Origin: Lysobacterales bacterium
GTDB lineage: Bacteria; Pseudomonadota; Gammaproteobacteria; Xanthomonadales; SZUA-5
DNA: 64,000 nt
Assembly: GCA_022844165.1 (NCBI GenBank)
Contig: JALHMH010000001.1
Location: 64,001 to 128,000 of the forward strand
Direction: 5' to 3'
The notes below the pieces were generated by a model, which made no database searches, had not been told where the DNA came from, and saw nothing but the letters and a program-made list of their open reading frames with translations. Made by a program: the position numbers and the translations under genes. The first letter of the stretch is position 1. Every line of letters starts with the position of its first letter. Positions 3-21,998 of this stretch are shown here, piece after piece.

Positions 3-2576
3 GCGTCCGGCGGCGATGCCGAACTGAATTCCGCACTCAAGGATCTATTTGAGCTGGCGCAGGTGTCGGGACATCAAGCCGAAGACCTGGCGCCAGCTGC
101 GGCCGGTCTGCTCGCACAGATGGTTGCGCCGAACGACCCTGCCGTGGCGTGTCTATTGCAATTATTCGCCGGCATGCATCGCATCTTCGACGAGCACGAA
201 GCGCGCGCCGAACTGCGGGCACATATGGCGCGGACGCTGCTCGAGGGTTGGCAGACTCGCGCCGGATCGGAGTTGACCGCCCTGCATGCGGCGCTCAGTT
301 TCCTGCGCGCCAGCGCGCACTGGAAAAACAGTCAGCTCGCAAAGCTGATGATCGCCTTCGAGCCATCGCTGCGTTCGGTTTCGGCCGCGGTCAAAATTTC
401 CAGAGTGGCCGCTGAACTTGCCGATCAAGCCAGCGCTGCGGTCCTGCGCGACTATCCGCATTACGCCGAACGAATTGGCGAAAGCGGTTGCGCCGCGACG
501 CGCCGTGACAACTACTTTACCGTCTTGCGGCTGGCACAAGTTCTGGGTGGGGCCAACGCATCGCCCAAAGAAACGATGGTGTGGTGGTGGTTGAGCACGA
601 TCGGCGTCTATCTGCGCAATCGCGATCAGTCTGTGATGCAAGGCAACCTGCGCGCCATCGTGCACGCGCTGACGCCGCATTTAAGAGTCGAAGAACTGCT
701 GATCTGCAGCGATATCCTGACGGCCGTGTACCGGAAGGGATTGGCAATCGACATCCCGCGCGATCTGGGCGTCGGATCGGTGTTGAACTTTCGACAAATG
801 GCCGAGCGCGGCCCGTTATGGCGTAGCGCGTTCACCATGCGCCGTGCCGCATCGCCCCACCACGGCCTGCTCGGCGACTACTTGAAAACTTACGCCGCGG
901 CCGACACCGAAGGCGCGGCTGTGATCGATGTTTGGCGCAACTTCGCGGCACAGTGGCAGGCGCTGGGCGATCCGGCGATGGCCTGGTCGGAACTGTCGGC
1001 ACAGGTGTCCCAGGCGATCCGCGCCGTGGGCGCGAATCGGTTGCAGTCGGCTTGGGTTCGCGAGCTGCGAGTATTTGGCGCGATGCCCGAATGCGCCATG
1101 CACCATTTGTTGTTGGCGCAAGGCCTGGAGCGAGTGCAACTGGTGGCCTTTGGGTTGAACCTGGCGCCGCGCATCGCCGAGTTGTCTGCATTGATGGGAC
1201 GCTCAGCGCATGTTCTGCCGGAAACGCCAGAAGGTCGCGGCGAGTTGTTCGCGCACAAGGGCGAGCGTGACCTGGCGCTACTGCTGAATGTGTTGGCGGA
1301 GGCCTGCTGCAGTGGCGATCAAGGTCTCGCAACACTGAATGCTGGACGCTATCTGCTCGAGTGTATCCTGCCCTACGTTCCGTTCTCCGAACAGAGCTGG
1401 GCTTCGGTTTGGGCGGTTGCACTCGCGGAACTCCTGCCGACGTCGTGCGCACCGGTGTCGGCCGCGGCGCAGCGCTGTTTTGCGCTGCTCAATGCCCTCA
1501 CCCGCCAGGCGGATATGCTACGTGCGGTAGGGCAGGAGATTTTTGTCCCCACCTTGCCGGTGTTTTCCGACGATCCGGCACAGGAGGCAGAGTGGCGTGC
1601 GCTGGCCTCCGGGTTAATGGTGGCCGCTGCGGCTGCAGACGCTGGTCTGCCGGGGGAGGCGCTGGCGCAGAGTCTCGCGCTGGCGACTCCATTGTTTGCA
1701 GAGCAGGCAGTCACCTTGTGGCAGGAAGCCAAAGCGCCGCTTTGTGCGTTGCTTGGAAAATCGCTGTCGCCCAGTTTGCGCTCTGCGCTCGACGGCGTCT
1801 GCGCCGCGCTCGACCGCACGCTTGGCGCCGAACGGATTTTTCAAGGCGCTCCGGCGAGCTCGGCCCTGGATCTGGCATTGGCGCTACGCAGCGCCGACCC
1901 GTACTCGCTGGCGATCTGGCGCTGCGATCGCGTTACGCGGGTGCAGCGGGAAGGTCTGACCACACCGCTGCCGGGGGATCTGACCATGTCCCGCGCAAGC
2001 GGTTGGCAGTGCCCAGAAATGCTCGCCATTCGCCGCGCGATTTCCCACCTCAGCGAATGCACGGCGCTAGCGCCACAGAATGCTGCGCCGGGCCGGCAGG
2101 ACTTCCAGCTCGGGTTACAGCGCCTGGCCTGGTCTACCGCATTCCTGCGCGATGGTATGGGCAACGCACTGGCGCCATGGCTGACGAGCTCGTTGCTCGG
2201 CGGCGAGTGGTACGCACTCGATCTGCCGACGCTCGTGGCGTGGTCCGAGGCATGCATCGGTGAACTCGACGAGCGCTTCGGCGACGACTCGACGCTGGTC
2301 GCGCGGCTGCATGAGGCACTGGCCAGCCTTTGGCTGCCAACCGCTGCCACTCAAAGCGCTGCGGAGCTGCCGGTACGTCAGGGCAATGCACTTGAGCAAC
2401 GGAGTCTTGCCAGTTTTCTGCTGGGTCAGTCCGCACCCAATACACCAGAAGAATCAGCCCGCGGGATGGCGATCGTTCATGCCTCCGGTTGGTTTCAACG
2501 ACTCACCACCTCGCATCAAGCCAGGGTAACGTCGGCGCTGCGCGCAGGTCGCTACCGCGGGAGCCTGCCGGCATGA
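3..2576 (+). CDS. Large helical protein with repeated phycobiliprotein/globin-like segments (5'-truncated by window edge)
   Basis: The frame is open from position 3, with no stop before the GTG at 63. Segments RDYPHY..GCAATRRDNYFTVLRLAQ, HKGERDLALLLNVLAEA and GRQDFQLGLQRLAWS resemble the phycobiliprotein CxRDxxxxLRxxxY helix. The stop overlaps the next ATG (ATGA). Confidence 0.55.
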   Translation, partial: ASGGDAELNSALKDLFELAQVSGHQAEDLAPAAAGLLAQMVAPNDPAVACLLQLFAGMHRIFDEHEARAELRAHMARTLLEGWQTRAGSELTALHAALSFLRASAHWKNSQLAKLMIAFEPSLRSVSAAVKISRVAAELADQASAAVLRDYPHYAERIGESGCAATRRDNYFTVLRLAQVLGGANASPKETMVWWWLSTIGVYLRNRDQSVMQGNLRAIVHALTPHLRVEELLICSDILTAVYRKGLAIDIPRDLGVGSVLNFRQMAERGPLWRSAFTMRRAASPHHGLLGDYLKTYAAADTEGAAVIDVWRNFAAQWQALGDPAMAWSELSAQVSQAIRAVGANRLQSAWVRELRVFGAMPECAMHHLLLAQGLERVQLVAFGLNLAPRIAELSALMGRSAHVLPETPEGRGELFAHKGERDLALLLNVLAEACCSGDQGLATLNAGRYLLECILPYVPFSEQSWASVWAVALAELLPTSCAPVSAAAQRCFALLNALTRQADMLRAVGQEIFVPTLPVFSDDPAQEAEWRALASGLMVAAAAADAGLPGEALAQSLALATPLFAEQAVTLWQEAKAPLCALLGKSLSPSLRSALDGVCAALDRTLGAERIFQGAPASSALDLALALRSADPYSLAIWRCDRVTRVQREGLTTPLPGDLTMSRASGWQCPEMLAIRRAISHLSECTALAPQNAAPGRQDFQLGLQRLAWSTAFLRDGMGNALAPWLTSSLLGGEWYALDLPTLVAWSEACIGELDERFGDDSTLVARLHEALASLWLPTAATQSAAELPVRQGNALEQRSLASFLLGQSAPNTPEESARGMAIVHASGWFQRLTTSHQARVTSALRAGRYRGSLPA

Positions 2577-3046
2577 GACAGATCAAATTTCGCGCCGATC
2601 AATCCACGGTTTCGTTGCAAACCGACACCCGACTTCTCGATGCGCTCTTGGCGCATCAAGTGCCGGTGAAGATGGTCTGTGGTGGTCGCGGTTTGTGCGC
2701 TACCTGTCACGTGTACGTCACCGCCGGCGAAGCCAGCCTCACCCCTGCATCGCAGCGCGAACAGTTGGCTCTGAGCGTACTCACCGGCGCTCAGAGCAAC
2801 AGTCGGCTGTCGTGTCAGGCACGGGTGATCGGCGATGGTGTGGAAGTGGCGCTTCCCGATGGCATGTACGTCGAGTCGTTTACTGAACTGGAATCGTTGA
2901 TCGGGCAGCGCACGTCGATGCCGATCTTGCATCCGGTGACCGGCGAGACGCTGGTCGAGGCGAACAAAATCATCATTCGCTCTTCAATCATGCAACTGAA
3001 GGACGTCGATTTCAGTATCGGCGACGTCGGCACGTCCAGGGCATGA
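2573..3046 (+). CDS. 2Fe-2S ferredoxin with C-terminal extension
   Basis: CGGRGLCATC...RLSCQ cluster motif. ATG at 2573 overlaps the upstream TGA. The ~60 aa tail (LPDGMYVES..LIGQR..ILHPVTG..KIIIRS) resembles that of the cyanobacterial Slr0148-type ferredoxin. Confidence 0.9.
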   Translation: MRQIKFRADQSTVSLQTDTRLLDALLAHQVPVKMVCGGRGLCATCHVYVTAGEASLTPASQREQLALSVLTGAQSNSRLSCQARVIGDGVEVALPDGMYVESFTELESLIGQRTSMPILHPVTGETLVEANKIIIRSSIMQLKDVDFSIGDVGTSRA

Positions 3047-3090
3047 GCGCAGTTTTCGCAGGCAAATCCGATGACTTTGAGTAAAGACTA

Positions 3091-3750
3091 ATGGCTATCG
3101 ATCCAGTACTAGGCGGCGTCCAGGGTTTCCACAATTACTACACGCCCGACGAGTTTTTTCGCCACGATCCCACGGAGGGCTCGATTTATCTGCGCGATGG
3201 CCAGCGCGCGGCCAAGATTTCCGAGGCCTTCATCAACGGACTGCACACCGGAATCGAAGAGGAAGTCGGCAACAGCTCAGGACTGCTGATGTATCGGTGC
3301 GGTCAAGAGTGGGCGCTTGCCGACATGAAACGTTTCTCAGCGCGAATGCGCCAGGAGTTCGGTGGCGGAAAGCTCGACATCTGGCAGATGAACCCGGCTT
3401 TCGTTTGGGAGTGCTGGTGGTGGCCTTTGGCGATCGAAGGATACGGCGGATGGACCTTGGATCTGAGCTTTGCGGACAAGGACATTACGCTGATCGAAAT
3501 CCGCAACTCGGCCGTCGCCAAGTCCATGAAGATGGTCGGCCGCCCGGTCTGCCACATGTACGCGGGGTTGTTTGCCGGCGCCTTCAGCTTTTTTCACCGC
3601 AAGGAGCTGCAGAGCATTGAGGTGCAGTGTTACGCGATGGGCAACGACGTCTGCAAGTTCCTGGTCGGCGACGAGAAACGCGTCAACGCTGCAGAATTCT
3701 GGCGAGAAGAGGGTGCCAGCGCGCAAACCATTCGGGAAAATCTCGCCTGA
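3091..3750 (+). CDS. V4R (4-vinyl reductase) domain protein
   Basis: GYGGW helix-turn, PVCHMYAGLFAGAFS, EVQCYAMGNDVCKF with the C/E/C/C metal ligands typical of V4R. Confidence 0.9.
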   Translation: MAIDPVLGGVQGFHNYYTPDEFFRHDPTEGSIYLRDGQRAAKISEAFINGLHTGIEEEVGNSSGLLMYRCGQEWALADMKRFSARMRQEFGGGKLDIWQMNPAFVWECWWWPLAIEGYGGWTLDLSFADKDITLIEIRNSAVAKSMKMVGRPVCHMYAGLFAGAFSFFHRKELQSIEVQCYAMGNDVCKFLVGDEKRVNAAEFWREEGASAQTIRENLA

Positions 3751-3762
3751 GGCGGAACATCC

Positions 3763-5928
3763 ATGATGACAACTCCTAACAGTCAATTGCTTGAACTCGG
3801 CGCTTTCTTTCGCGAAGTTGTCGAAGGCATCGCCGATAGCCAGGCCGGGCGTCGCCCCCCACCTAAGGCCGAGATGCCGACTCTTGATGGCGCTGTGCTG
3901 CTCGACTCGATGCGGGCGATCGTTACCGAGGAACTGCAAGGACTGGCCAGGACGCAGCCACTGCTCGGAAGTGATGATGCCGCGCTACGCGAGGCCCAGG
4001 CCGTGGCCGCCGACAGCGCGCGCCGTATCGAAGAGCTTGAGCTTGCCCACCAGCAGCGCGAGTTGGCGCTGCGCCAGCAGTTGCACGAACGCTACGAGGA
4101 GCAACTGCAAGCCGAACGCAGTCGCCAGGCGCTGGTTGACGAGCGAGTCATCACGCTCGAAAACCGGTTGGATGTCAACGAGACCACCAGACAAAGTCTC
4201 GAATCCGAGCTTCGTGAGCGCAGCGATTTGCTGGCGGTGCTGCGTTCCGAGCTCAACCACATGCATGAGCAGGCGCAGCATCTGGAGCGCAACCATGCGC
4301 TACTGGTCGGCCAGATCGATGAACAAACCGAGCGCGATCGCCAGCGGCAGGCGGAGTTCGATGCTTGCCAGGCGCAACGGGACGAAGCGCTGCGGGCGTT
4401 TGCGCTGCAGGAAGACACCGTCGCTGTCTTGAATGCCGAGCTGGAACAGGCGCGCAACGATCGGCAATCTCAACAGACCAGCGCCAACAGCCTGCGGCTT
4501 GAGTTCGAAGCGAAATTCGAAGAGCGAGAATCGGAAGCGCTGCACATGCTGCTGGCCGCAGAGCAGCGCGCGCGTGAGGATCGTCAGACGTACATAGAAC
4601 AGATCCATCAGTTGACCGAAGCGCTCGATGCCGAGCAACTGCAAAATGCGCAACTCAAGGACGCGATTCTGGTGCTGGAGGCGCAGGCCGAAAACGCTTC
4701 AGACGTGCAGGCATTCGCAGCGGAATTCCAGGCCAAAGACCAACAGCAACAATCCGAACTGAGCGAATTGCGCGAGGCACTGAAGGCCGGGCAAGAGCTC
4801 GCCGAACAGCTTCAGAGCGAACTCGCGTCGGTGCAAACCGCTGCGGTTGCAGACGCAGAGAGGTTGGCGGAGCAACTGCGAGTACGAGAAGAAGAACTGC
4901 AAGTCAAGACCGCCGAATTGGATGGCGCACTGCTCGGCGAACACGCACGCACCGCTGAGTTGCAAGCCGAAATCGCGACACTGCGCGAAGCGCTCGATTC
5001 CGAATCAGCAGCGCGTGCCGCTGACCGAGCACTTCTCGAGGCGCAGCTCAGCACGGAACAAACGCTTACCGTGCAGCTGCAGGCCAACATCGCGCGCCTT
5101 GAGCAAGAGGCACAACACCGGCAGCAGGCCGACGATCGACGCTCGGAATTGACTCAGGCGTTGGATGCCGAGAGAGCGCAGACCGCTCGTCTGAAGACCG
5201 AGATCCTGCAGTTCGAAGCGCGCGTAGCAGCGGCTGCCGAAGCGAACACCAGAATGCTGGCCGCGGTGCAGGAGCTGAGCAGCAAACAATTGCTCGAACT
5301 TGGCAGCGCGCTGAAATCTGAGCAGACATTGACTGCGCAACTGTTGGCCGACATTCAGGCATTGGAAGCACGATCGAATGAGCAGGATCTGGCGCTGGCG
5401 CAAGCGCAAGCGGCTGCCGATGCCGATCGTCACGCACGGCTCGAAGCGCAAGCCGCAGCTCAGGCGCGGGAGCAGGCGCTGATCGAAGCACGCTCGCAGT
5501 TGCAAGCGCTCAACGACCAACAAGAGGCGTCCAGGAAGCGCGCGTCAGTGGGATTCCTGGCGGGGCTTGGAGAGACACCGCCGGTTGATGCATCGCCGAG
5601 CGCAGCGCAGGCTGCCATCGCCGCTGCACCTGTCGCCCCTGCTCCTGTGGCCGCTGCGGTACAAGCCGCTGTAGCACCGATGAGCGCTGTGGAGTTAGAG
5701 CGCGAACAGAAGCGACTGGCGATTCTGAGCCAAAGTACCGATGTGGCCACGGCCAAACTCTATTTCCAGATGCTGCCCTGGCAAGGACTCAAGACCTCTC
5801 GAATTTCTGTTGCCGCAAATGAAAGGGGCGACCCCAGTGGCACGCTCGCTGGTTTTGCTGTCGCCGCCGCTACCCAACAGGCAATCGATTCCAGTCTTTC
5901 AACTCAACCGACGAAGGCCAGACCATGA
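3763..5928 (+). CDS. Long coiled-coil protein, function unknown
   Basis: 721 aa E/Q/A/L/R-rich heptad sequence, an Ala/Pro linker and a short C-terminal YFQMLPWQG motif. Coupled to the next gene by an ATGA overlap. Confidence 0.75.
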   Translation: MMTTPNSQLLELGAFFREVVEGIADSQAGRRPPPKAEMPTLDGAVLLDSMRAIVTEELQGLARTQPLLGSDDAALREAQAVAADSARRIEELELAHQQRELALRQQLHERYEEQLQAERSRQALVDERVITLENRLDVNETTRQSLESELRERSDLLAVLRSELNHMHEQAQHLERNHALLVGQIDEQTERDRQRQAEFDACQAQRDEALRAFALQEDTVAVLNAELEQARNDRQSQQTSANSLRLEFEAKFEERESEALHMLLAAEQRAREDRQTYIEQIHQLTEALDAEQLQNAQLKDAILVLEAQAENASDVQAFAAEFQAKDQQQQSELSELREALKAGQELAEQLQSELASVQTAAVADAERLAEQLRVREEELQVKTAELDGALLGEHARTAELQAEIATLREALDSESAARAADRALLEAQLSTEQTLTVQLQANIARLEQEAQHRQQADDRRSELTQALDAERAQTARLKTEILQFEARVAAAAEANTRMLAAVQELSSKQLLELGSALKSEQTLTAQLLADIQALEARSNEQDLALAQAQAAADADRHARLEAQAAAQAREQALIEARSQLQALNDQQEASRKRASVGFLAGLGETPPVDASPSAAQAAIAAAPVAPAPVAAAVQAAVAPMSAVELEREQKRLAILSQSTDVATAKLYFQMLPWQGLKTSRISVAANERGDPSGTLAGFAVAAATQQAIDSSLSTQPTKARP

Positions 5929-6524
5929 GCACAGTCGCGGCAAATGTTCGTCCCCAGAGCCAGACGCTCAGAAAGCACGCGTTGCTCAAGGAACTCTTTC
6001 GGCGTGCGGAAGGCAGGCATTGGAGCGAAGAGGAACTTAGTCTCTACGCCAAGAGCGCCCCGGAATTCATGGAACGCGTACATGCCGCAAGGGCAATCGC
6101 TCGACATGAAACGGCGGTTGTCGAAAAGACCGTGACCGAAATATTCGCCAGCTACCCATTCACCAAGTACCACGCGTTGGCCGAAATCAAAGCGCCGCGC
6201 GACATCACACAGGTCAGTGTGTACGCCACGGCCGCCATGCTGATGAACGATCACGACTGGTTTCGAGATCGGGTGTTGTTGTGGCTCAAAACCATGCTGC
6301 AGGCATTCGTCTTCCCCAAGCGCGAAGCGGCCAGTCAGCGGACCTTATTCGGCAACCGGGCGGCCACCAACAATCCCGCCGAGAGCATGCCGCAGCGTAA
6401 ACAGGCCGTGTTCGAAACCTACGTTGTGCTCAAACGCAATTACCAGCAGGCGCTTGAGGCCGCGGACTACGCGCAATTTGAGCCTTACCTGCAACAGATC
6501 ATCGACACCCTGTCGGCGGACTAA
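5925..6524 (+). CDS. Allophycocyanin/phycobilisome-protein-like globin-fold protein lacking Cys
   Basis: AEGRHWSEEEL (cf. AxGRYLSxxEL), RVHAARAI, KAPRDITQVSVYATAAMLMND..FRDRVLLWLKTML (cf. CxRDxxxxLRYxxxAMLxxD). Confidence 0.8.
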   Translation: MSTVAANVRPQSQTLRKHALLKELFRRAEGRHWSEEELSLYAKSAPEFMERVHAARAIARHETAVVEKTVTEIFASYPFTKYHALAEIKAPRDITQVSVYATAAMLMNDHDWFRDRVLLWLKTMLQAFVFPKREAASQRTLFGNRAATNNPAESMPQRKQAVFETYVVLKRNYQQALEAADYAQFEPYLQQIIDTLSAD

Positions 6525-6530
6525 ACAACT

Positions 6531-7229
6531 ATGAGCGCGATGATGAATCAAGCACCAGTCTTGCCAGAAGCCGGCGGCACCGCGTTGACCGCCGGTACGT
6601 CCAGTGCGCGTTTTGCTTCCATGTTGGAGATCGATAGTCTGAACTTCGATTTGTACGAAGGCACGGTGGTCGACCCCAGCGATACCCGCAGCATCTTCCT
6701 GGCAACCGACATTTTGCGTGGCATCCACGCCGCTTTGTCCTATGAAGCTGGCCAGGCTTGGACAATCGTGCTCTATCGCTGCGGTTTTTTATGGGGACAA
6801 AAGACCCTGCGGCATTTCGTGCGCCAATCGCAAGGCGCCTTCGGCGCAAAGTTCGAGCAGATCAGCGTCGACGTTTTCTTGAGCAACCTGATCACTTTCA
6901 TGAACTTCAATGGCTGGGGTGTGCTCAGCATCGACATGCAGCGCGCGACGACGCATGGCGTGCTCCGCATGGAGTTGCGCAAGAGCATTTTCGCCGATGC
7001 CCTCGACCATCTCCGCGAACGCGTGGACTTCATGGTCGCTGGAATGCTGGCTGGCGTATTCAGCGACCTGTCGCGCGCCAGCCTGGCGTGCATTGAAGTA
7101 AGTTCTTCGCTGACCGGCGGCTCGAACTCTGTGTTCCTGTTGAGCGCCAGCGAGCGCATTGAAGCGCTGCGCCCGGCATTGGAAGGCGGCGCCGACGAAC
7201 GCGAGCTGATCGAGCTTCTGTGTGGCTGA
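6531..7229 (+). CDS. Second V4R domain protein (metal-ligand Cys largely lost)
   Basis: LYRCGFLWG, NGWGVLSID, DFMVAGMLAGVFS, CIEVSS..SVFLL. Similar to 3091..3750. Confidence 0.85.
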   Translation: MSAMMNQAPVLPEAGGTALTAGTSSARFASMLEIDSLNFDLYEGTVVDPSDTRSIFLATDILRGIHAALSYEAGQAWTIVLYRCGFLWGQKTLRHFVRQSQGAFGAKFEQISVDVFLSNLITFMNFNGWGVLSIDMQRATTHGVLRMELRKSIFADALDHLRERVDFMVAGMLAGVFSDLSRASLACIEVSSSLTGGSNSVFLLSASERIEALRPALEGGADERELIELLCG

Positions 7230-9162
7230 GTTCGACGCCATCCCGGAGCGATATGAGGTGCTCGGCGAATTGGCGACCGGGGCGCAAGGTGTTGTGTTGC
7301 GTGCTCGCGATCGACACAGCGGCAGTGCTGTGGCCATTAAGCAGTTTTCGATCGGTGCGCGCACCGCTTACCTGCGGGAATTGGCGGCATCGCTCGACAA
7401 TCGGCACGACAATCTGCTGACGCCGCTGGATACGTTCTACGGCGCGGACGGCGTCGGGTTCGTGGTTTACGAATTCCTGGAAGCAGGTACCTTGCGCCAG
7501 GCGATGACGCCTGGGAAACCGTTCGCCTCACTTCTAATCCTCCGTTGTGCGGAAGATCTGCTCAAGGCCTTGGTCAACTTGCACGATCGCAAGTTGATTC
7601 ACTGCGACATCAAACCAGAGAACATTTTCGTCCGGCACAATGCGCAAGGTCAGATGGAGTCGTTCTTGCTGGGTGATCTCGGATCGACCTGTTCTATACG
7701 CGAGGCTGAAGAGGGCGACTACCGCAGCGGGTCGCCCGCCTACACAGCGCCCGAGCGCTTCTATCAGAAGTTTCAGCCCAATAGTGATCTGTATAGCCTC
7801 GGCGTTCTGCTGTTCGAATTGGCCAGCGGTAACTTGCCCTTTATCGGAGGCCCAAAAGCCATGGCGCGCGCGCACCTGCAACAGCCCGTTCCGCTGAATC
7901 AAATCCAGTCTTCTCACCTGCGCACCTTGATCGGCGGGCTGATGGAAAAGGAACCATCGCGACGGATCGGCTCAGCAAAAAGAGCATTGCAAATGCTGAA
8001 CCCAGAGGACGCGGTACAGGGTCCATCGAATTTGCCCATTTCGAATGCTGACTTAAGAACACCAGTGAATAAGCCTACGCAAAAGCAAGCCAATATCGGC
8101 CGACGCCCTCCGATTGAAGTGGCGAGCACCATCATCGAGTCCGGTTTCGCCCGTTTGCACATCGCGAGCGTTGGCGATAAACCCTTGTTGCTGGTCGAGT
8201 CCAGTACCGATCTGGCAACCCTGGCTCTGGCGCCACAATCGCGCCCGCGCCTGTTCCCGAAATCGGGAAACGCACGACTGCTGGGTACGTCGGAGTTGCT
8301 TTACCAGGTCGAATCGTCGATCAACCTGTTGAACTTGAGCAGCGGCGCCAATCGCGTGCTGCACGACCGCTGTGTCGGCGCCATCGATTTTACCTGCGAC
8401 GGGCAACGGTTGCTCTGGCGGACGCGGCGCAGCGCGCATCGGATAGACCTGGAAACGCGTGCCGAGAGTTCGTTCTTGCTGGCGCACTATCTGCTGGATG
8501 CCCGCTCGCACTTGCTTCCGAGCGGCAGCTTCGCGGTCTCAACCGGGGCCATGAACAACCAGATTGCGCTTCGCAGCAGCGACGGCACAGCGAAGGCGGT
8601 GCACGAACTGGATGGTCCGGTCATCGAGATCGTCAACGATTTGGAGACTTTGCTGGCGCTGACGCTTAACGTCAATCAGGCGGACAGCCTGACGCTGTGG
8701 CGAATCTCCGAGTATTCCAAACCCCAACGTCTGGATGTCCCGACCGGCTCGCGCTTTTTTGCGACCACACCAGGTCACATATTCTGGCTCGACAATGGCA
8801 CCCAGATCGTACAGTGCGGCATAGGTCTTGCGCCGCGCGAGGTTTTCAGGGCGGGCGAGTCGATCGACGGCTTCGCGATCTCGCCGGATCATGCCTGGCT
8901 CGCGACCTGGAGCAATCTCGGTGACAACGTCTCACGAGTTCGGGTCTATTCCGCGGCGAATGCCAACGAGGCCGTGTCCCGGAGCGATGAGCGCAGTCAG
9001 CTTCGCGCACCGCCAGGCAAGGAATCCCTGCTCCGTTCGACAGAATCGATGCCACCGGCGGCGCAGGTGAGCGTCAAGAGAACGAGCAATCCGGTTGAAC
9101 ATTCGACTGGATCGACAAGAACCCGCTCCGTCAACGACTCCAGCGAGACGCACACGCCATGA
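7222..9162 (+). CDS. Hanks-type Ser/Thr protein kinase with C-terminal beta-propeller-like domain
   Basis: GAQGVV, VAIK, IHCDIKPEN, DLG, GSPAYTAPE, DLYSLG. The C-terminus is beta-rich and ends in FAISPDHAWLATW (WD40-like). Confidence 0.92.
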   Translation: MAEFDAIPERYEVLGELATGAQGVVLRARDRHSGSAVAIKQFSIGARTAYLRELAASLDNRHDNLLTPLDTFYGADGVGFVVYEFLEAGTLRQAMTPGKPFASLLILRCAEDLLKALVNLHDRKLIHCDIKPENIFVRHNAQGQMESFLLGDLGSTCSIREAEEGDYRSGSPAYTAPERFYQKFQPNSDLYSLGVLLFELASGNLPFIGGPKAMARAHLQQPVPLNQIQSSHLRTLIGGLMEKEPSRRIGSAKRALQMLNPEDAVQGPSNLPISNADLRTPVNKPTQKQANIGRRPPIEVASTIIESGFARLHIASVGDKPLLLVESSTDLATLALAPQSRPRLFPKSGNARLLGTSELLYQVESSINLLNLSSGANRVLHDRCVGAIDFTCDGQRLLWRTRRSAHRIDLETRAESSFLLAHYLLDARSHLLPSGSFAVSTGAMNNQIALRSSDGTAKAVHELDGPVIEIVNDLETLLALTLNVNQADSLTLWRISEYSKPQRLDVPTGSRFFATTPGHIFWLDNGTQIVQCGIGLAPREVFRAGESIDGFAISPDHAWLATWSNLGDNVSRVRVYSAANANEAVSRSDERSQLRAPPGKESLLRSTESMPPAAQVSVKRTSNPVEHSTGSTRTRSVNDSSETHTP

Positions 9163-9803
9163 CCAACCACACTGCGCCCGCCATCAATGGCGCCACGCCC
9201 TCCGTGCATTGCGTCTTTTACACTCACCCGTGGGCCATCGATGCGCTGCGGGTTGCCAAACTTGGCGAACTGGATCGGACGCTGCTCATCGAACTGGCGC
9301 GGCGCTCGCAACTGGCGAGCTTGATCAACACCCAACAACAGCTGCGGTCTGGCGTGAGCGGCATCCTGCGCGATCCCGGTGAACTCGACGGGCTGATCGT
9401 CACGACACCGCGGTTCCTGGTACCCGTGATCCTTGCGCCCAATCCTTGCGTGCCGGATGCAACACAAGCCTCGGCGATCGCTCTTTTGCCATCCGTGAAG
9501 TCGAGCTTCAATCGCTTCATCGTGTTTGTACATCTGTCAGAGGCAATGAACTTCCGCTACGCGTATCCGTATTGCGATCGTTTTTCGTTTCTCTGGGACG
9601 TCGCAGACCCTCCGATGTTCAAAATGGGCGATATCGGCGCGATGCTGCGCGATCTGGGTGTGCTCAGGCGCGAATCCTGGGGAGGATTTTACTTGTTCAA
9701 TCATCCACGGCGGCATGTGAGCAATCTGGACAGCCGGCTGAGCGAATTGCGAAAGGTGATGGGGCAGGCGAAAAAGCCCAGCGCTCTCGCCGCAACAGCC
9801 TAA
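9159..9803 (+). CDS. Hypothetical protein
   Basis: 214 aa ORF coupled to the kinase by an ATGA overlap. No family recognised. Confidence 0.6.
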   Translation: MTNHTAPAINGATPSVHCVFYTHPWAIDALRVAKLGELDRTLLIELARRSQLASLINTQQQLRSGVSGILRDPGELDGLIVTTPRFLVPVILAPNPCVPDATQASAIALLPSVKSSFNRFIVFVHLSEAMNFRYAYPYCDRFSFLWDVADPPMFKMGDIGAMLRDLGVLRRESWGGFYLFNHPRRHVSNLDSRLSELRKVMGQAKKPSALAATA

Positions 9804-9814
9804 GGCCCGCGAGC

Positions 9815-10300
9815 ATGTGGGACTTAAAACACGGCTTGGGAATTTCCGCACTTCCGACCCGGTCGTCGCTCAGGCTGTTTAAGACCCTGGGATTCACCGA
9901 TCTGGTCAACGTCTCCGGCAGCGCAACGGAAAACTTGTACCTGGCAGCCGATCTCGATGGTTTGGCCTTCAGCGACTATCCATTTGCCGATGTACTCTCG
10001 ACCGCTGGCGCGGTTACGGAAATCGTTGAGAAGCTTGGTCCGGCCGGGCTGTTGGAGTTTAAGAAGGCTGCAACTCAAACCGCCAGCTGTCTGCAGCAGC
10101 AGCGTCGCGTCATCGTGTTTTGCCACCTCGGCGTTGGGCGTTCACCGGCCGTCTCGACGATTGCTTTGATGCTCGGGCGGGGCTATTCGTTAGACGAAGC
10201 TGTTGATGTGATCGTGAAGTTGCGACCCGAGGCGGTTCTTAGCGACCCGGTCGTTGCATTTGTCCAACGGATGCATGCGGAACTCGTGAGTGCCGCATGA
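9815..10300 (+). CDS. Dual-specificity/tyrosine protein phosphatase (CX5R)
   Basis: VIVFCHLGVGRS active-site loop followed by LM..GYSLDEAV..IVKLRP. ATG at 9815 chosen just after the upstream stop. Confidence 0.88.
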   Translation: MWDLKHGLGISALPTRSSLRLFKTLGFTDLVNVSGSATENLYLAADLDGLAFSDYPFADVLSTAGAVTEIVEKLGPAGLLEFKKAATQTASCLQQQRRVIVFCHLGVGRSPAVSTIALMLGRGYSLDEAVDVIVKLRPEAVLSDPVVAFVQRMHAELVSAA

Positions 10301-10980
10301 CGCTCAATAGCGTACTTGAGCGCAGTACGGAGCTGGCCGTCGCTGCCGGCTTCAGGCGAAAGCCGCTCGATCCCGAACTGGCGCAGGCGGAAAAGCCTCT
10401 GCCCAGCGGCAACCTCAGCTGTAACGCGCAAAGCTGGGAGGCCGATGCCGCTGAGCTGCGCGTGGTGTCGATCGAATCGCCCAAGATCCAGGTGATTTCC
10501 TGTTTCGTCTATCCGCATTCGGCCATTGCGTTGCCGCTTTATGCCATGGAGTTGGTACAGCTCGGCGCAAAGCCCATCGTTGCGGTCATCGATGCGGTAG
10601 CGCCAGCGCACGACCCTGCGCAGGCCATCGCACAAAACTGGCTGGAGCAAGCGCATTGTGTGTATGCCGACCTCAAGAATGCCGACGATCCTCCACCGTG
10701 GTTTCAAGCGTGTCGCAGCGGTCTGGACTTTTTCATCCGCCCTGGTGACCAGACGGAATTGCGACGCGTCGGTTCCTTGCACGTCGAGCTGCTGGGGCGG
10801 TACTTGCACGCGATCCCCGATGCCTCGCAGAGGACGGTTGCCGCTGCCCACCGCTACGAAGAATTTTCGCGCCACTACAAAGATCATCATGCCGCGAATT
10901 CGCCGGGTTTACCGTTGATGCAGAAGTCCTTCGGCCCGCAGTGGACGGAGCGTTTCATGCAGCAGTGTTTCTTTCTTTAG
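10297..10980 (+). CDS. Ferredoxin-dependent bilin reductase family protein (PcyA/Peb/RCCR-like, divergent)
   Basis: IQVISCFVYP...LPLYAMELV...AVID, PPWF...S..FFIRP and C-terminal PG..LMQKSFGPQWTERFMQQCFF match the FDBR pattern (..FGxEWxxxYxxxxLF). Confidence 0.82.
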   Translation: MTLNSVLERSTELAVAAGFRRKPLDPELAQAEKPLPSGNLSCNAQSWEADAAELRVVSIESPKIQVISCFVYPHSAIALPLYAMELVQLGAKPIVAVIDAVAPAHDPAQAIAQNWLEQAHCVYADLKNADDPPPWFQACRSGLDFFIRPGDQTELRRVGSLHVELLGRYLHAIPDASQRTVAAAHRYEEFSRHYKDHHAANSPGLPLMQKSFGPQWTERFMQQCFFL

Positions 10981-10990
10981 AGCTAGTCCA

Positions 10991-12163
10991 ATGCATCGTT
11001 ATCGATATCTGATCATCGGCGGCGGGATGGCCGCAGATTCGGCGCTCAAGGGCATTCGCATGTCCGACCCCACGGCTCAAGTGGGGCTGGTGTCCGAAGA
11101 ACTGGACAAACCCTATAACCGCCCGCCGCTGTCGAAAAAGCTCTGGGATGGACTTCCATTGGAGGAAATCTGGCGCCCGAATCGCGGCTCCCAAGTCAAC
11201 TTGCATCTGGGCCGGCGTATCGTCGCGCTCGTCCCCTTGCGCAAGCAGGCGCGCGATCAGACCGGCGAGATCTACGCCTTTGAACAAGCACTGCTGGCCA
11301 TCGGCGGCAGCCCAAAGCGCATCTCAGGCGATGACGAATCCGTCATGTATTTCCGCACACTCGCCGATTACCGACGCCTGCGCGCGTTGTCGCGCGAGGC
11401 CGAACCGATCACGCTGGTTGGCGCCGGGCTGATCGGCACCGAACTTGCCGCGTGTCTGCGCAAGGCGGGTTCTTCGGTCGATCTTTATTGTGGAAAACGT
11501 GGTCTTGTTCGGTCGATTCTGCCCGAAGTCTTGTCTAATGAACTGGCGCGAAGCCTTGATGGGCATGGCGTTCGGCTGCACTTCTTGAGCGTCTCGAACA
11601 TCCAGAAGGCAAACGGCACCCAACAACTCAAGCTGAGCGACGGAAAAATGGTGACGGCCAAACGCGTCGTCGCCGGTCTGGGCCTGGTCGCGAACACGCA
11701 ACTGGCCAAAGATGCCGGCATCGTGTGTTCCAATGGCATCGACGTAGATGCCTCGCTCAGAACGTCGATACCTGGCATATATGCCGCCGGCGATTGCGTG
11801 AACTTCTGGTGCTCAACCCTGGGTCGGCGACTGAGTTCGCAGCATGAAGAACACGCCAATTTTTCGGGTATCGCTGCCGGTCGCGCGATGGCTGGAAAGA
11901 CGGTCGACTACTCGCCGTTGCCGTACTTTTACTCACGCGTTTTCGATCATGCATACGAGGGGATTGGCTGGGTCGATACGTCGCTCAAACACCATGTCGT
12001 GGCACCGCGAGGACCGATGGAGGCTACGGTTTATTATCTGCACGACAACCGCGTCGTCGGCGTGTTGTATTGGAATACGCGGGCCGATCTGGAGCGGGCC
12101 ACCGAGCTTATCGAGGCCAAACGTCCGTGCACGCCAGCCGAGCTGGTCGGTCAGATCCAGTGA
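10991..12163 (+). CDS. FAD-dependent NAD(P)H:ferredoxin reductase-like oxidoreductase
   Basis: IIGGGMAA, PYNRPPLSK, LVGAGLIGTE, TSIPGIYAAGD and PYFYS motifs. Confidence 0.9.
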   Translation: MHRYRYLIIGGGMAADSALKGIRMSDPTAQVGLVSEELDKPYNRPPLSKKLWDGLPLEEIWRPNRGSQVNLHLGRRIVALVPLRKQARDQTGEIYAFEQALLAIGGSPKRISGDDESVMYFRTLADYRRLRALSREAEPITLVGAGLIGTELAACLRKAGSSVDLYCGKRGLVRSILPEVLSNELARSLDGHGVRLHFLSVSNIQKANGTQQLKLSDGKMVTAKRVVAGLGLVANTQLAKDAGIVCSNGIDVDASLRTSIPGIYAAGDCVNFWCSTLGRRLSSQHEEHANFSGIAAGRAMAGKTVDYSPLPYFYSRVFDHAYEGIGWVDTSLKHHVVAPRGPMEATVYYLHDNRVVGVLYWNTRADLERATELIEAKRPCTPAELVGQIQ

Positions 12164-12208
12164 GGCGAAGTTCGACCATGCCGGTCGACCTGCGCCACCG
12201 CTCTGATA

Positions 12209-15200
12209 TCAGGCATGGGCAAACTGCCTTTCTTTTCCTTGTTGGCCAGCCAATTCTGCAAAGTGCGTCATCAACCCGCGGAGTCTCACTGCCTTCAATG
12301 GTTTGTACAGCAGGTGGTGCCCGTGCTTCTTGCAGCGTTCCCGCAGAGCGTCGCTGTGATCGGCCGTAATTAAAGCGCTACCGATTAAGGAACTGCCGAG
12401 CCGCAGTTGCAAAGTCCTGAGCAGTTCGATACCCAACTCATGGGGACCCAGCTGCTGATCGACCAACAGCACATCGGGCACGAATGTGGCAATCGTTGCC
12501 AGAGCCGCAGCGCCATCTTCGGCAGTCTCTACGTCTACGCCCCAACCACTCAACAACGCGCGCATCGATCGTAAAATGTCTGGATCGTCGTCGACGCAAA
12601 GTACCTTCATCGGCGTCGGCAAGCCATCGGCACTGGCAGCTGCCATCTCGTGGCCTGGCGATGCTTCTGTTTCTCGCCACTCGCCCAGCAAAGGCACAGC
12701 AACTCGAAAACAGGAGCCACGGCCCGGCTTCGACACGACAGTCAACGAATGGCCCAGCAGGCGGCATATCCGTTCGCAAATCGCCAAACCCAGACCGCTG
12801 CCGCGGTCGCCCCAGGGCGATCGCTGGTTCACACGGGAAAACTCTTCGAAGACCTTCGATTGGTGTATGGCATCAATGCCGATACCGGTGTCCCACACCT
12901 CGATCAGCAGCTCGCCGCGGCGTTTGCGTGTGCCCACGAGCACCCCGCCTTCAGCAGTGTATCGGAGCGCATTCGCCATCAGGTTCTGCACCACGCGACG
13001 CAATAGTCGGCGGTCGCTTTGCACCAGCCATTTACAGGGCGGAACCCGCAACTGAAGTTGCCGGGATGTCGCCAATGAGGACATTTGCGCGGCCAGGATC
13101 TCGAGCTGGGGATAGAGCGCAAAAGGCTCAATTTCGGTCACTAAAGCGCCAGAATCGAGTTTGGTCACTTCGACCAGCACATCGATGATCTCTTCTGCCG
13201 CGATCAGCGCCAGATCAATACGTTGGGCGGCTTCCCGCACATTGCTGCCAATCGCGGGCAGTTCGCTGAGCGCCGAGGCATAGATGCGTGCAGCGTTCAG
13301 CGGCTGCAACAAGTCGTGACTGGCTGCGGCAAAAAAGGTCGCCTTTCGATCCAGCGTGGCTTGCGCAGCGGGTTTGGAGATGGGCGCGGCAGCCATGCCA
13401 AGTTGGGCGGTATCCAAAATGGTCTTCACCAGATCCAAGGTGTGCCGCGTGGTTTGGCAGACAACGTCCAACGCCTCTCGCACTCGCGGCGTTTGCGCGA
13501 GTTTCAGCGCCATTTCGGTCTGGCCCAACATGATCGTCAGTGGCTCGTGCAATTCGCGACCTACCTGACCCAGCACTGTCGATTTCGCCTGCACAAGCGC
13601 TACAGATTCGCTCAGCGAATCTTCGAGCACACGGTTTTTCTGCTCCAGCCCTGCCCGAATTCGGCGCCGTTCGCTGATGTCGGTCAACACCGAGATCCAA
13701 TGCGTTCGCCTACCGAGTGCATCTTCGACCGAGGAAACGCGCACGTCCGCCCAGAACGTGCTGCCATCCTTGCGGTACAACAAAATTTCATCCTCGAACT
13801 TATCGCCGCTGGCGAGTTTTTCGCGAATATTGTCCATTGCGCCGGCACCGGATTCTGGGCCGAACAGAAAAGTGGGTACGGTGCCAATGACCTCGGCCAC
13901 ACGATAACCCGTCACGCGCTCGAAAGCCTCGCTCGCCATCAAGATGCGCCGTCCGACGCCCGGCGTGGGTTCGGCTTCACTGATCAGGATCATCACGTTG
14001 CTGTTTGCTGTGCTGCGATGCAGGAACTCAAGTTCGATGCGGGTTCGCTGCTCGCGACGGCCCTGAATCAGACTGCGCAGCGATTCCGCGAAACTCAGTT
14101 CATCGCTGGACCACGGATCGGCGGCAAGGCCGGCATCTCGGAAACGCGCGTTGCTCGCGAGCCGAAACCAAAGCAACCTGCTGTCCAGAGGGTCGCCCAC
14201 GTCTGCCAAAAGCAGTCCCGCAAAATCTGCCCCACCGCGTTCGGCTGTTGCGGGCCATCGCAGTGGCCTTGTGCCGGGCTGCGTTGCTGCGGGCAATCGA
14301 CCGATGACGCGCCGCAATTCGTTCTCTTGTGGGCATAGACCGATACACACACAACGCTTTTGGCTTAGCAGTGCAAAACCGTCTGCCTGCAGTGCGCTCA
14401 GCAACAGTTCGGCTTTGCCGTCCGCCGTCAAGTTCTCCAGGTCGCCGTCGTCGGTACATTTGGCAAACGCCTCCAGCGCGGCCTCGCGTTCGCCATTCCT
14501 TTTGCGGGCAACGCTGATCTGATATTGATCAATTCGATGGGCCACCTCCTTGCACATGCGCCAGAAAGCCAGGCGGGCCGGGCCGCTCAGCAATTTGGGC
14601 CGACGCAATTGCTGGCATTCGATGACGCCCCACAAAGTGCCGCGTACGACCAGCGAGCCGGTCGACAGCGCTGTGATACCCGTGCGCCGCAGTTGTTCCA
14701 ACGACGGGTCGACGCGCAAGCTGGACCCGCTGAGGTCGCCCGCGCCGAGTGTTGCGCCACGCAGCAGCGGCGATGCGGAGCAACTGAGATCGGCAAAATG
14801 CTCGATACCTGACTTGCGCAAGCGGTCCCTGAACTGCTTGCTGTATATCGATGCCGTGTCGCTCGAGTCCGGGATCGACTCAATCTTCGAGTGGCGCGCC
14901 TGCGCAATCACCGAGGCATCGCCGTGCACATCGAACCGACGCAACAGTACACGGTCGAAACACAGGGACTTTCGGATGACCTTGACAGCCTTCATCAAGA
15001 AAGCGTCCTGCTGATCGGACTGCGCCGATTCGGTGATAGACTCAAGCCCGGAAAAGAGGCGCTGCAACGATTGCGCAGAAGCCCGTCGACAGCGCTCCAG
15101 ATCCAGTATCGCCATGCCTGCCCGGACATGCAGCCAGCCGTAACAGGATCGGCCAGATTCGCGCAGAGTCAACACCAGATACGAATCCGGCGGCGCACGC

Positions 15201-15394
15201 CGACGCGAAACCGCGGCTTCGAGTCGGCGCCAGCTCCGCGGCGTGAAGAGCTGAGTCGCGGGCTGGCCGATCAGCGCCGCGCCGTCGTAGCCGAGTATTT
15301 CGGCTGTGGAGGTACTCGCTGCCTGAATGCGCAAGCTCTCGATATCGAGCACAAGCACCGCACCGTGCGGCTGAATTGCGTGAGCTGCGGGCAT
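12209..15394 (-). CDS. Bacteriophytochrome-like hybrid histidine kinase (PAS-GAF-PHY-like, PAS, HisKA, HATPase, REC)
   Basis: IQPHG, FDRVLL..F, LWGVIEC, LLWFR; PAS with YRKDGSTFW; SHDLLQPL H-box; NALRYT, DTGIGI, GLGLAI; receiver VDDD..D..KP. Confidence 0.88.
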   Translation of the reverse strand: MPAAHAIQPHGAVLVLDIESLRIQAASTSTAEILGYDGAALIGQPATQLFTPRSWRRLEAAVSRRRAPPDSYLVLTLRESGRSCYGWLHVRAGMAILDLERCRRASAQSLQRLFSGLESITESAQSDQQDAFLMKAVKVIRKSLCFDRVLLRRFDVHGDASVIAQARHSKIESIPDSSDTASIYSKQFRDRLRKSGIEHFADLSCSASPLLRGATLGAGDLSGSSLRVDPSLEQLRRTGITALSTGSLVVRGTLWGVIECQQLRRPKLLSGPARLAFWRMCKEVAHRIDQYQISVARKRNGEREAALEAFAKCTDDGDLENLTADGKAELLLSALQADGFALLSQKRCVCIGLCPQENELRRVIGRLPAATQPGTRPLRWPATAERGGADFAGLLLADVGDPLDSRLLWFRLASNARFRDAGLAADPWSSDELSFAESLRSLIQGRREQRTRIELEFLHRSTANSNVMILISEAEPTPGVGRRILMASEAFERVTGYRVAEVIGTVPTFLFGPESGAGAMDNIREKLASGDKFEDEILLYRKDGSTFWADVRVSSVEDALGRRTHWISVLTDISERRRIRAGLEQKNRVLEDSLSESVALVQAKSTVLGQVGRELHEPLTIMLGQTEMALKLAQTPRVREALDVVCQTTRHTLDLVKTILDTAQLGMAAAPISKPAAQATLDRKATFFAAASHDLLQPLNAARIYASALSELPAIGSNVREAAQRIDLALIAAEEIIDVLVEVTKLDSGALVTEIEPFALYPQLEILAAQMSSLATSRQLQLRVPPCKWLVQSDRRLLRRVVQNLMANALRYTAEGGVLVGTRKRRGELLIEVWDTGIGIDAIHQSKVFEEFSRVNQRSPWGDRGSGLGLAICERICRLLGHSLTVVSKPGRGSCFRVAVPLLGEWRETEASPGHEMAAASADGLPTPMKVLCVDDDPDILRSMRALLSGWGVDVETAEDGAAALATIATFVPDVLLVDQQLGPHELGIELLRTLQLRLGSSLIGSALITADHSDALRERCKKHGHHLLYKPLKAVRLRGLMTHFAELAGQQGKERQFAHA

Positions 15395-15425
15395 TTTTTA
15401 CATCCGAAGGATGAGGTTACGAAGA

Positions 15426-16127
15426 CTAACCGTCGCCAATCGACTGAGTGGCATCGAAGGTTTGCATCATCAACGCAACCTGCGTGCGATTGCGCGCGTC
15501 CAGTTTTTGCATGATCGACTTCATGTGCACCTTGACCGTCGCTTCGGTGATCTGAAGTTGTGCTGCGATCTGTTTATTCAACATCCCGGTTGCCAACATG
15601 CTGGCAATACGGAACTGTTGTGCGCTGAGCGCTCCAATCTGGCGTGCCGCCGACTGCTCTTTCGAGCTCAATTGTGGTACGAACCCCAACTCGCTCAGTG
15701 AAGCAGGAATGTAGCGCGAACCGGACAGCACCTGGCCGAGCGCCTTGGAAATTTCCCGCAACGGTGCGGATTTGGGAATGAAGCCCGCTGCGCCCAGCTG
15801 CAGAGCCCGGCGGATCGTCAGTGGCTCTTCCTGCGCCGAGATGACGGCAACGCTCAGGCCAGGCGACTTCGCGCGCACGTGGATCAGGCCCGACAAACCA
15901 TGCGAGCCGGGCATGTTCAAGTCGAGCAAAACCAGATCGACGTTTTGATCGCGATTGAGCAGATCCTGAAGGCAATCCAGCGTATCGGCCTCCAACACGG
16001 ACGCCGACGGGAAGTTGGCGCCTACACAAGAAACCATCGCGTGCCGGAACATCGGATGGTCGTCCGCAACGATAATCGTCCCGACTGCCTTGATGTCGAT
16101 CAGGTGGGGACTGAACAAACTAGACAT
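15426..16127 (-). CDS. NarL/LuxR family response regulator
   Basis: IVADDHPMFR, LLDLNMPG, GAAGFIPK and a LuxR HTH (NKQIA..L.ITEATVKVH). Start set at ATG 16127, which overlaps the heme oxygenase end. Confidence 0.93.
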   Translation of the reverse strand: MSSLFSPHLIDIKAVGTIIVADDHPMFRHAMVSCVGANFPSASVLEADTLDCLQDLLNRDQNVDLVLLDLNMPGSHGLSGLIHVRAKSPGLSVAVISAQEEPLTIRRALQLGAAGFIPKSAPLREISKALGQVLSGSRYIPASLSELGFVPQLSSKEQSAARQIGALSAQQFRIASMLATGMLNKQIAAQLQITEATVKVHMKSIMQKLDARNRTQVALMMQTFDATQSIGDG

Positions 16128-16848
16128 GCACGTGCTGCGCTGCGTGCGCAAATGGGCAGCCCAACGATCCTTGGCGTGCCGGGCGTGGCGCAGGCATGGC
16201 GACTTCGCCAAGCCATGCGCTCAGCGAGCCGAAGACGAAGCGCGCAACGTCGATCATGCGATTCTCATCGAGGTCGGTTGTGTTTTCGATCTGTTGAATG
16301 GTGCGTCTCCATACCTGCCCGTGCGCGCCGTCATAACAATCGAAGTATGTCACCGCGTTAGCGACAGTCTGACCCAGATGTTCGTTGAGCGCGCGGCGAA
16401 TCACTTGTCCGCCCAAGGTGGCGCCTTCGAACACATACACCACGCCGGCGCGCGTCGACTCATCGTGGCAATCCAGTTCGTCGAATACTGGCGAACTGGT
16501 ACTCCGGGGGAAGTCGCGCATACCGACGGCGGCGAGATCGGATTCAAGCTTCGGTGTGCGCTGGCAGGCGAGGTTGAAGACGGCATGTTGTGCCTGCGCC
16601 ATACGCAACTCCAGGGGTCCCACATAACCCAGCAGCCGCAGCAGCAACAGCCGATACTCATTCAGGCTGTAATCTGGCTCTAGCAGCCGGCGCATGCAGG
16701 GCACGGCCTCGATCATGTCGTGGGCCTGGCGTGTGTTTAGTCGCAAGCGCTGAATGCGCGATGTGGAGCGATCGCCATGCAGATCGCCCGATTCGCCGGA
16801 TAGCGACGCGGCTGGCAAAGTCGTTAGCAACACAGCTTTGGATCCCAT
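16120..16848 (-). CDS. bphO: Biliverdin-producing heme oxygenase
   Basis: LRLNTRQAH (proximal His) and YVFEGATLGGQVI distal helix. Co-oriented with a phytochrome-like kinase. Confidence 0.9.
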   Translation of the reverse strand: MGSKAVLLTTLPAASLSGESGDLHGDRSTSRIQRLRLNTRQAHDMIEAVPCMRRLLEPDYSLNEYRLLLLRLLGYVGPLELRMAQAQHAVFNLACQRTPKLESDLAAVGMRDFPRSTSSPVFDELDCHDESTRAGVVYVFEGATLGGQVIRRALNEHLGQTVANAVTYFDCYDGAHGQVWRRTIQQIENTTDLDENRMIDVARFVFGSLSAWLGEVAMPAPRPARQGSLGCPFAHAAQHVHV

Positions 16849-17057: not shown

Positions 17058-17276
17058 ATGGCACAAGTTCAGAAATCGACCGACTCTTCAAGTCTGGCCG
17101 AAGTTGTTGATCGCATCCTCGACAAAGGTATCGTGATCGATGCGTTCGTCAAGGTTTCGTTGGTGGGTATTGAATTGCTCGCGATCGAAGCGCGCGTGGT
17201 GATCGCCTCGGTCGAAACGTACTTGAAGTACGCCGAAGCGATCGGCCTGACCGCCAGCGCCGCGCAACCGGCGTAA
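17058..17276 (+). CDS. gvpA: Major gas vesicle structural protein GvpA
   Basis: [55 protein letters not shown] is canonical. Confidence 0.99.
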
Positions 17277-21997: not shown

Positions 21998-21998
21998 T

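Follow-up and report, generated by a model that had tools for sequence, protein, structure and literature searches.

A 1282-residue protein with tandem phycobiliprotein-like globin modules in a bilin gene cluster of a Lysobacterales bacterium

Bilin biosynthesis-associated globins (BBAGs) have a fold related to that of phycobiliproteins and, according to the main text of the paper that describes them, are encoded in non-photosynthetic bacteria within pre-PcyA clusters, which comprise a heme oxygenase, a ferredoxin-dependent bilin reductase of the pre-PcyA type, an Fe-S protein, two V4R proteins and one or two globins, the duplicates being separate genes (Rockwell, Martin and Lagarias, 2023; PMC10151467). 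According to the same text, the motif CxRD is confined to some of the BBAGs, the Arg-Asp pair touches the bilin of phycobiliproteins, and BBAGs from such clusters bind bilins when produced in Escherichia coli; a descent of phycobiliproteins from the bilin-binding globins of heterotrophic bacteria is also assumed there (PMC10151467). Here, we deal with a stretch of 64,000 nucleotides from a Lysobacterales bacterium (assembly GCA_022844165.1, contig JALHMH010000001.1, positions 64,001 to 128,000; G000:C1:64001-128000), which is called the window below, and with the open reading frame (ORF) that crosses its first position and encodes a protein of 1282 amino acids (aa; P0001), referred to as the giant and numbered along its full length. 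The giant very probably represents a tandem phycobiliprotein-like globin architecture. Like the BBAGs, it combines a phycobiliprotein-related globin fold with genes of the above kinds in a non-photosynthetic host, and CxRD is found in only a part of its family; unlike them, it joins four modules (D1, D4, D6 and D8) and spacers in one chain, stays below the cut-off of the Pfam family PF00502, and has a weak profile similarity to the BBAG of its own operon (E 0.009-0.36).

Other described proteins share one or another of these features. The alpha and beta subunits of phycobiliproteins have the same globin core with an N-terminal helix pair, their Arg-Asp is kept in D4 and D6, and the structural searches rank them first (8or7_A, 8imk_G and 1b8d_A); however, they are chains of about 160-185 aa that assemble non-covalently and hold the bilin via a Cys, while the domains of the giant are fused and lack this Cys. 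ApcE (LCM), the core-membrane linker of the phycobilisome, consists of one phycobiliprotein domain followed by linker (REP) domains. In contrast, the giant has several globin modules in a non-cyanobacterial host, and a Pfam scan of its whole length at E <= 0.1 listed PF00502 alone, with no REP domains after the globin part. Many concatenated globin folds are known from the polymeric haemoglobins of invertebrates, such as the nine-domain chain of Artemia, which resemble the giant in keeping their globins in one polypeptide and differ from it in binding heme, carrying oxygen, being eukaryotic and having no relation to bilin clusters. Photoglobin and photocobilin (PMC8717448; PDB 8j2w, 8j2y) have no N-terminal helix pair and are fusions with B12-binding domains, and the giant differs from them in both respects. 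It also lacks the N-terminal globin followed by a STAS domain of RsbR-type proteins and, at the level of sequence, the proximal F-helix His of heme globins.

The original prediction, made from the window, stated that the ORF runs past the window start. When the upstream DNA was retrieved, the frame was indeed found to extend to 1282 aa (L002:14728-18576), beginning 1272 nt before window position 1 (G000:C1:62728), with aa 426 at window 3-5. Its ATG shares four bases (ATGA) with the stop of an upstream ORF of 751 aa, and its stop overlaps the ATG of a ferredoxin gene at window 2573 (ATGA). Features of the locus are collected in Table 1.

Where would a chromophore be attached in such a protein? 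There is no CxRD in P0001, and the original prediction noted that none of its RD motifs has the canonical form. In a MAFFT alignment of 39 full-length family members, every CxRD sits in one of four columns: that of T591 (10 sequences), that of G845 (12 sequences), a gap of P0001 after about aa 1239 (7 sequences, the stretch being deleted in P0001), and a column near aa 470 (1 sequence). Because the CxRD of relatives falls on T591 and G845, the tetrapeptides T-R-R-D of D4 and G-E-R-D of D6 are to be read as degenerate chromophore sites, and the alignment shows these two RD helices as descendants of CxRD sites. In the structural models described below, both tetrapeptides lie within long helices of the domains that are best matched by phycobiliproteins. 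All three motif strings quoted in the original prediction are at their places (window 486-539, which translates to GCAATRRDNYFTVLRLAQ; 1260-1271, GERD; 2091-2102, GRQD). Its count of at least two and possibly three or more RD-helix motifs holds for TRRD and GERD and fails for the third, which reads R-Q-D and lies in a column where none of the aligned relatives has CxRD. The Cys that it placed three residues upstream of the first motif exists (C588) and is kept in just six of eight close homologues. RD dipeptides by themselves are weak evidence: the window part has six against 2.5 expected, and six or more occur in 3.4% of 2000 shuffles. Another motif, M-x-W-W-W (aa 617-621, window 576-590), follows the TRRD helix of D4 and is invariant in 10/10 close homologues; we know of no counterpart in phycobiliproteins.

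AlphaFold2 models were built with a 43-sequence alignment, one of aa 83-1282 (model 1; pLDDT 88.3, pTM 0.65) and one of aa 690-1282, which excludes D4 (model 2; pLDDT 92.2, pTM 0.93), and both are entirely helical. They were searched with VIA-align against 48,161 representative chains, and the best 50 rows per model were considered. Among those of model 1, 8 of the first 12 are phycobiliprotein or phycobilisome chains, and at least 35 of the 50 name phycobiliprotein, phycobilisome, globin, haemoglobin or myoglobin. The best rows all fall on model residues 407-593, that is aa 489-675, and include far-red allophycocyanin (8or7_A; 13.1, 141/158), a phycobilisome chain (8imk_G; 12.4), phycoerythrin (1b8d_A; 11.8), the DosC globin (4zva_A; 11.1), the bilin-binding domain of ApcE (4xxi_A; 11.1) and photocobilin (8j2w_B; 10.6). 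For model 2, phycoerythrin (1b8d_A; 10.2, 152/164), the bilin-binding domain of ApcE (4xxi_A; 9.7, 143/147) and allophycocyanin (8or7_A; 9.1) occupy ranks 1, 3 and 5, a globin-coupled sensor globin (4uiq_A; 9.8) and photocobilin (8j2w_B; 9.2) also being listed; at least 31 of the best 50 rows are of such kinds, and the best ones lie on model residues 1-245 (aa 690-934). These two domains have a globin-like fold with an N-terminal helix pair before the core, as is characteristic of the phycobiliprotein and BBAG superfamily. The original prediction had proposed AlphaFold followed by Foldseek or DALI as a check; Foldseek returned nothing significant with either model, and VIA-align placed globin-fold chains on two domains.

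Relatedness within the chain was followed by running hhalign on slices of the 39-sequence alignment. D1 (aa 122-244) matches D6 (787-909) with probability 95.7 and E 8.6e-9; D4 matches D6 with probability 70.6 and E 3.9e-5, TRRD lying on GERD in register, and D8 with probability 77.3 and E 2e-5, with a gap over the E-helix in D8. In the 751-aa protein encoded upstream, both KCxRD domains are matched by D4 as well (probabilities 93 and 85). As profile comparisons, these show the four putative modules D1, D4, D6 and D8 to be related to one another.

The giant is not alone. A word-based search gave seven homologues of 1225-1312 aa with 49-68% identity, and a homologue was found in 2 of 58 other genomes sampled from the genus, family and order (43% and 35% identity); there was none among 400 other genomes sampled from the phylum, and scans of genome contigs with alignment A1 and with P0046 gave no relative. 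Searching 1.84 billion representatives by HMMER with a three-sequence profile of aa 151-1282 yielded 110 clusters (at 50% identity) at E <= 0.001, 45 of them at E <= 1e-30, mostly of 1150-2100 aa. The 110 representatives contain 180 CxRD against 5.5 expected from shuffles, with two or more in 51 of them and none in 38, and the count is zero in the three most similar clusters, P0026, P0027 and P0029. In a P0098-type subfamily of 11 sequences, five CxRD-centred segments are mutually related (probabilities up to 98.1), and those around CxRD 657 and 917 map to D4 (probability 99.5) and D6 (99.2), respectively. PF00502 exceeds its cut-off in 14 of the 26 distant members and smaller matching proteins that were scanned, for example at aa 623-682 of P0098, and lies below it in 5 of 10 close homologues of the giant (best E 0.0036). 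The smaller proteins, of about 760-800 aa, match family profile positions 388-520 (P0001 aa 538-670; E 5.7e-20 to 5.4e-14) with their C-terminal 130 or so residues, and their N-terminal part is a PF00502 domain (E 1e-18 to 7e-10). No NCBIfam family was found for the giant, which by first-pass tests alone (Pfam, NCBIfam and a PDB sequence profile) would be an orphan; the family is outside all Pfam and NCBIfam models in the libraries searched. The idea of the original prediction, that globin or phycobiliprotein domains are concatenated here, is thus borne out by two domains with phycobiliproteins as best matches and by four mutually related modules and, in the family, by distant members with up to six CxRD and with PF00502 above its cut-off at the homologous position. 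As for the most elaborate members, P0062 (2139 aa), P0098 (1423 aa), P0079 and P0092 have five or six CxRD, often paired about 112-125 residues apart, and two domain types (CQRDxxW and KCxRD) alternate in the P0098 group.

What might such a chain of globins do? In the explanation that we favour, and to which as a whole we give an even chance, the giant would be a soluble all-helical poly-globin whose four globin modules, D1, D4, D6 and D8, are separated by other helical modules and which acts as a non-enzymatic scaffold. The pockets of D4 and D6 would hold bilins supplied by the heme oxygenase and reductase of the cluster, with no thioether bond; any bilin in them would be non-covalent, because Arg-Asp is kept while the Cys is replaced by Thr or Gly. 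The giant, the BBAG and the 751-aa protein with its Cys might then form a multi-chromophore assembly, which could be read out by the products of the kinase, phosphatase and c-di-GMP genes. A sensory output may be suspected from genomic context, namely from the kinase, phosphatase-like and GGDEF-EAL genes and the nearby gas-vesicle genes. The bilin binding of BBAGs from such clusters speaks for this explanation, and bilin binding by the giant itself seems to us nearly an even matter, leaning slightly to the negative.

Several observations weigh against this explanation, and some of them also speak for the alternatives. P0001 has no CxRD, and therefore covalent attachment at the canonical site is excluded; bilin binding is inferred for the giant, as it is for the whole family. 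RD is lost in D1 and the whole E-helix in D8, and both are recognized as globin modules from profile comparison only, and for D2, D3, D5 and D7 profile comparison gave no link to the globin modules (the best pair, D6-D7, has probability 11.6). Similarity to known families is also faint: the PF00502 score is 14.0-16.9 bits against a cut-off of 22.2 (E 0.014-0.051, aa 533-589 only), the BBAG profile, when compared by hhalign with the whole giant or with slices of it, gives E 0.36, 0.009 and 0.012, and a profile of eight homologues has four matches at E 1.5-2.5 among PDB sequences, none of them a phycobiliprotein. Foldseek against the PDB gives 0 matches at E <= 0.001 for both models, and heme and RsbR-type globins fit the cores at rmsd 2.5-2.7 A as compared with 3.3-5.7 A for phycobiliproteins. 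An ESM Atlas feature search with aa 765-945 reached a best score of 0.76, under the level that the tool takes for a lead. A complex prediction for aa 490-1282 with the BBAG (score 0.01) weighs neither way.

Missing cysteines and eroded modules are what one would also find if the giant were a chromophore-free pseudo-phycobiliprotein scaffold, which with its pockets empty would organize or anchor the 751-aa protein and the BBAG, somewhat like the linker proteins of phycobilisomes. The absence of CxRD from the giant and from P0026, P0027 and P0029, the state of D1 and D8, and the two invariant KCxRD sites that the adjoining 751-aa protein keeps are all in favour of it, and so is the faster evolution of the giant and the 751-aa protein, which show 28-55% identity across the same loci as compared with 78-94% for the ferredoxin and V4R protein A. 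However, T591, R593, D594 and N595 are invariant in 10/10 homologues (32-68% identity), and R847 and D848 are present in 9/10, down to 32% identity. Empty pockets are disfavoured because this invariance of the RD residues is hard to explain otherwise. Besides, the BBAG of the operon is likewise without the Cys (KAPRD). We regard the empty scaffold as a substantial possibility, though the less probable one.

The other alternatives fare worse. The giant could be a multi-globin that binds heme and serves as a gas or redox sensor or carrier, like globin-coupled sensors, but this is very unlikely, because no His is present in aa 579-645, where the F-helix of D4 would lie (a test at the level of sequence), and the operon, with its heme oxygenase and bilin reductase, degrades heme to bilins. 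His is invariant in 10/10 homologues only at 247, 490, 711 and 712, with none in the cores of D4 and D6, and at the E-helix site relatives have the bilin motif CxRD. That the giant is instead a generic helical-repeat scaffold of the HEAT/ARM kind, with RD motifs and globin-like matches arising by chance, is hardly credible. The top Foldseek rows of both models are indeed long helical-repeat or membrane proteins, there is a weak match to HEAT_GCN1_C (E 0.69), and the enrichment of RD dipeptides is just mild; yet these rows, with E >= 0.024 and TM <= 0.16, superpose at an rmsd of more than 20 A, the VIA-align lists are filled by globin-fold chains on two separate domains, the excess of CxRD in the family falls in aligned columns, and distant members pass the PF00502 cut-off.

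A literature search found no paper describing a chained-globin architecture, the supplements of PMC10151467, which may show such proteins, being outside the search; multi-globin proteins are not mentioned in the main text of that paper. The gene cluster around the giant has already been published there, and the giant itself, as far as that text goes, has not (PMC10151467). Apparently, the giant is a Cys-less member of a sizeable family that is undescribed in the literature searched and that belongs to a published cluster type. About 110 clusters of 1100-2100-aa proteins with repeated CxRD globins, whose genes lie in such bilin clusters, would offer a concrete object for testing the role of globins in heterotrophs and the origin of bilin arrays. 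How many bilins does one chain carry? Is energy transferred between them? Do the Cys-less members serve as scaffolds? Buoyancy is suggested as a phenotype to look at by the conserved association with gas-vesicle genes and with genes for a kinase, a phosphatase-like protein and a c-di-GMP enzyme. Going further, the giants might be single-chain multi-bilin arrays of heterotrophs, a fused counterpart of phycobiliprotein oligomers, in which a Cys-less giant is the ApcE-like organizer of the 751-aa protein and the pigment assembly senses light or redox state and steers c-di-GMP, phosphorylation and gas-vesicle buoyancy. This is speculation that we ourselves hold to be rather improbable; if it were true, ordered bilin-binding globin arrays would have arisen outside photosynthesis, before or beside the phycobilisome.

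The gene of the giant comes third in a conserved operon whose genes all run in one direction, in the order PAS-GGDEF-EAL protein, 751-aa tandem globin, giant, ferredoxin, V4R protein A, long protein, BBAG, V4R protein B, kinase, phosphatase-like protein, reductase and ferredoxin reductase. The gene set of the published pre-PcyA (pre-1-type) cluster is present within window 2573-16848, and by gene content, as given in the main text of that paper, the operon is an extended cluster of this type; the kinase here recalls slr0152 (SpkG), which according to the same text adjoins the cyanobacterial version (PMC10151467). Gene order is the same in nine related loci (two genomes and seven metagenome contigs) as far as the contigs extend, which are not nine independent observations, because some contigs are near-identical to one another. 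The kinase and phosphatase-like genes (window 7222-10300) are kept in all loci that reach them.

Table 1. Features of the giant and its surroundings (window positions unless a locus is named).
Feature	Position	Strand	Remarks
Last 857 codons and stop of the 1282-aa tandem-globin ORF	3..2576	+	5'-open at window start
D1, aa 122-244, putative globin module	upstream of window		profile comparison
D4, aa 489-680, phycobiliprotein-like globin with N-terminal helix pair	192..767	+	globin core about aa 536-675
T-R-R-D, aa 591-594, degenerate CxRD of D4	498..509	+	T591, R593, D594 invariant in 10/10 close homologues
D5, aa 692-786, helical module	801..1085	+	phycobiliprotein chains align from D5 into D6 (model 2 residues 1-237)
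D6, aa 787-942, second globin / phycobiliprotein-like domain	1086..1553	+
G-E-R-D, aa 845-848, degenerate CxRD of D6	1260..1271	+	R847, D848 in 9/10 close homologues
D7, aa 946-1095, helical spacer	1563..2012	+	no relation to globin modules detected
G-R-Q-D, aa 1122-1125, third motif of the original prediction	2091..2102	+	begins conserved helix; not equivalent to CxRD
D8, aa 1149-1276, putative remnant of a further globin module	2172..2555	+	CxRD-bearing helix of relatives deleted; hhalign profile comparison
2Fe-2S ferredoxin-type protein	2573..3046	+	PF00111 E 2.3e-11
V4R protein A	3091..3750	+	PF02830 E 3.2e-17
721-aa protein rich in Glu, Gln, Ala, Leu	3763..5928	+	no Pfam family; position conserved
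Single-domain BBAG-like globin, 199 aa	5925..6524	+	PF00502 E 5.8e-10; KAPRD replaces KCxRD
V4R-like protein B	6531..7229	+	PF02830 E 0.052; orthologue in L007 E 0.0021
Ser/Thr protein kinase	7222..9162	+	PF00069 E 4.8e-34
Dual-specificity-phosphatase-like protein	9446..10300	+	PF00782 32.9 bits, just below cut-off 33.5
Ferredoxin-dependent bilin reductase, pre-PcyA-like by gene context	10297..10980	+	PF05996 61.2 bits; match span 10360-10974
Ferredoxin-reductase-like flavoprotein	10991..12163	+	PF07992 E 6.5e-44
Bacteriophytochrome hybrid histidine kinase	12209..15394	-	PAS_2, GAF, PHY, HisKA, HATPase_c, Response_reg
Heme oxygenase	16120..16848	-	PF01126 E 4.6e-11
Gas-vesicle (GvpA/J-type) genes	17091-17207 (+), 20656-20769, 21214-21330		PF00741; downstream of operon
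GvpN-like AAA_5 ATPase and CDC48-type double AAA ATPase	17870-19075 and 21921-24071		downstream of operon
Putative 751-aa tandem globin	L002:12476-14731 (G000:C1:60476-62731)	+	two invariant KCxRD / RCxRD motifs, aa 233-237 and 667-671
GvpL/F gene	L002:9935-10702	-	upstream of window

From its motifs and profile matches the 751-aa protein is a predicted tandem BBAG whose chromophore sites are canonical, and the ATGA overlap couples its translation to that of the giant. It has a third invariant motif, ERDL, at aa 114-117. In its orthologues, PF00502 attains its cut-off at two separate positions (E 8e-7 and 1e-11). It is the sole protein of this kind in the genome with the attachment Cys kept; at the place of KAPRD in the operon's BBAG, 4 of 18 homologues (P0018, P0020, P0023 and P0024) have KCxRD. 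The 721-aa protein, which is outside the core cluster as published in the main text of PMC10151467, has a composition that looks like that of a coiled coil, and its orthologues, of 760 to 1127 aa, show 29-53% identity only over short stretches.

Convergent to the operon are the genes for the bacteriophytochrome kinase, a LuxR-type response regulator and the heme oxygenase (window 12209-16848, minus strand). Besides the globin system, the organism is thus equipped with a photoreceptor of the conventional biliverdin type. The window is preceded by the GvpL/F gene, the PAS-GGDEF-EAL gene and the gene for the 751-aa protein, so that the bilin cluster has gas-vesicle genes on both sides. GvpL/F is found upstream in 4/4 loci that are long enough to show it, and in the related loci L006, L007, L013 and L015 the operon is likewise flanked by GvpL/F and the AAA ATPase.

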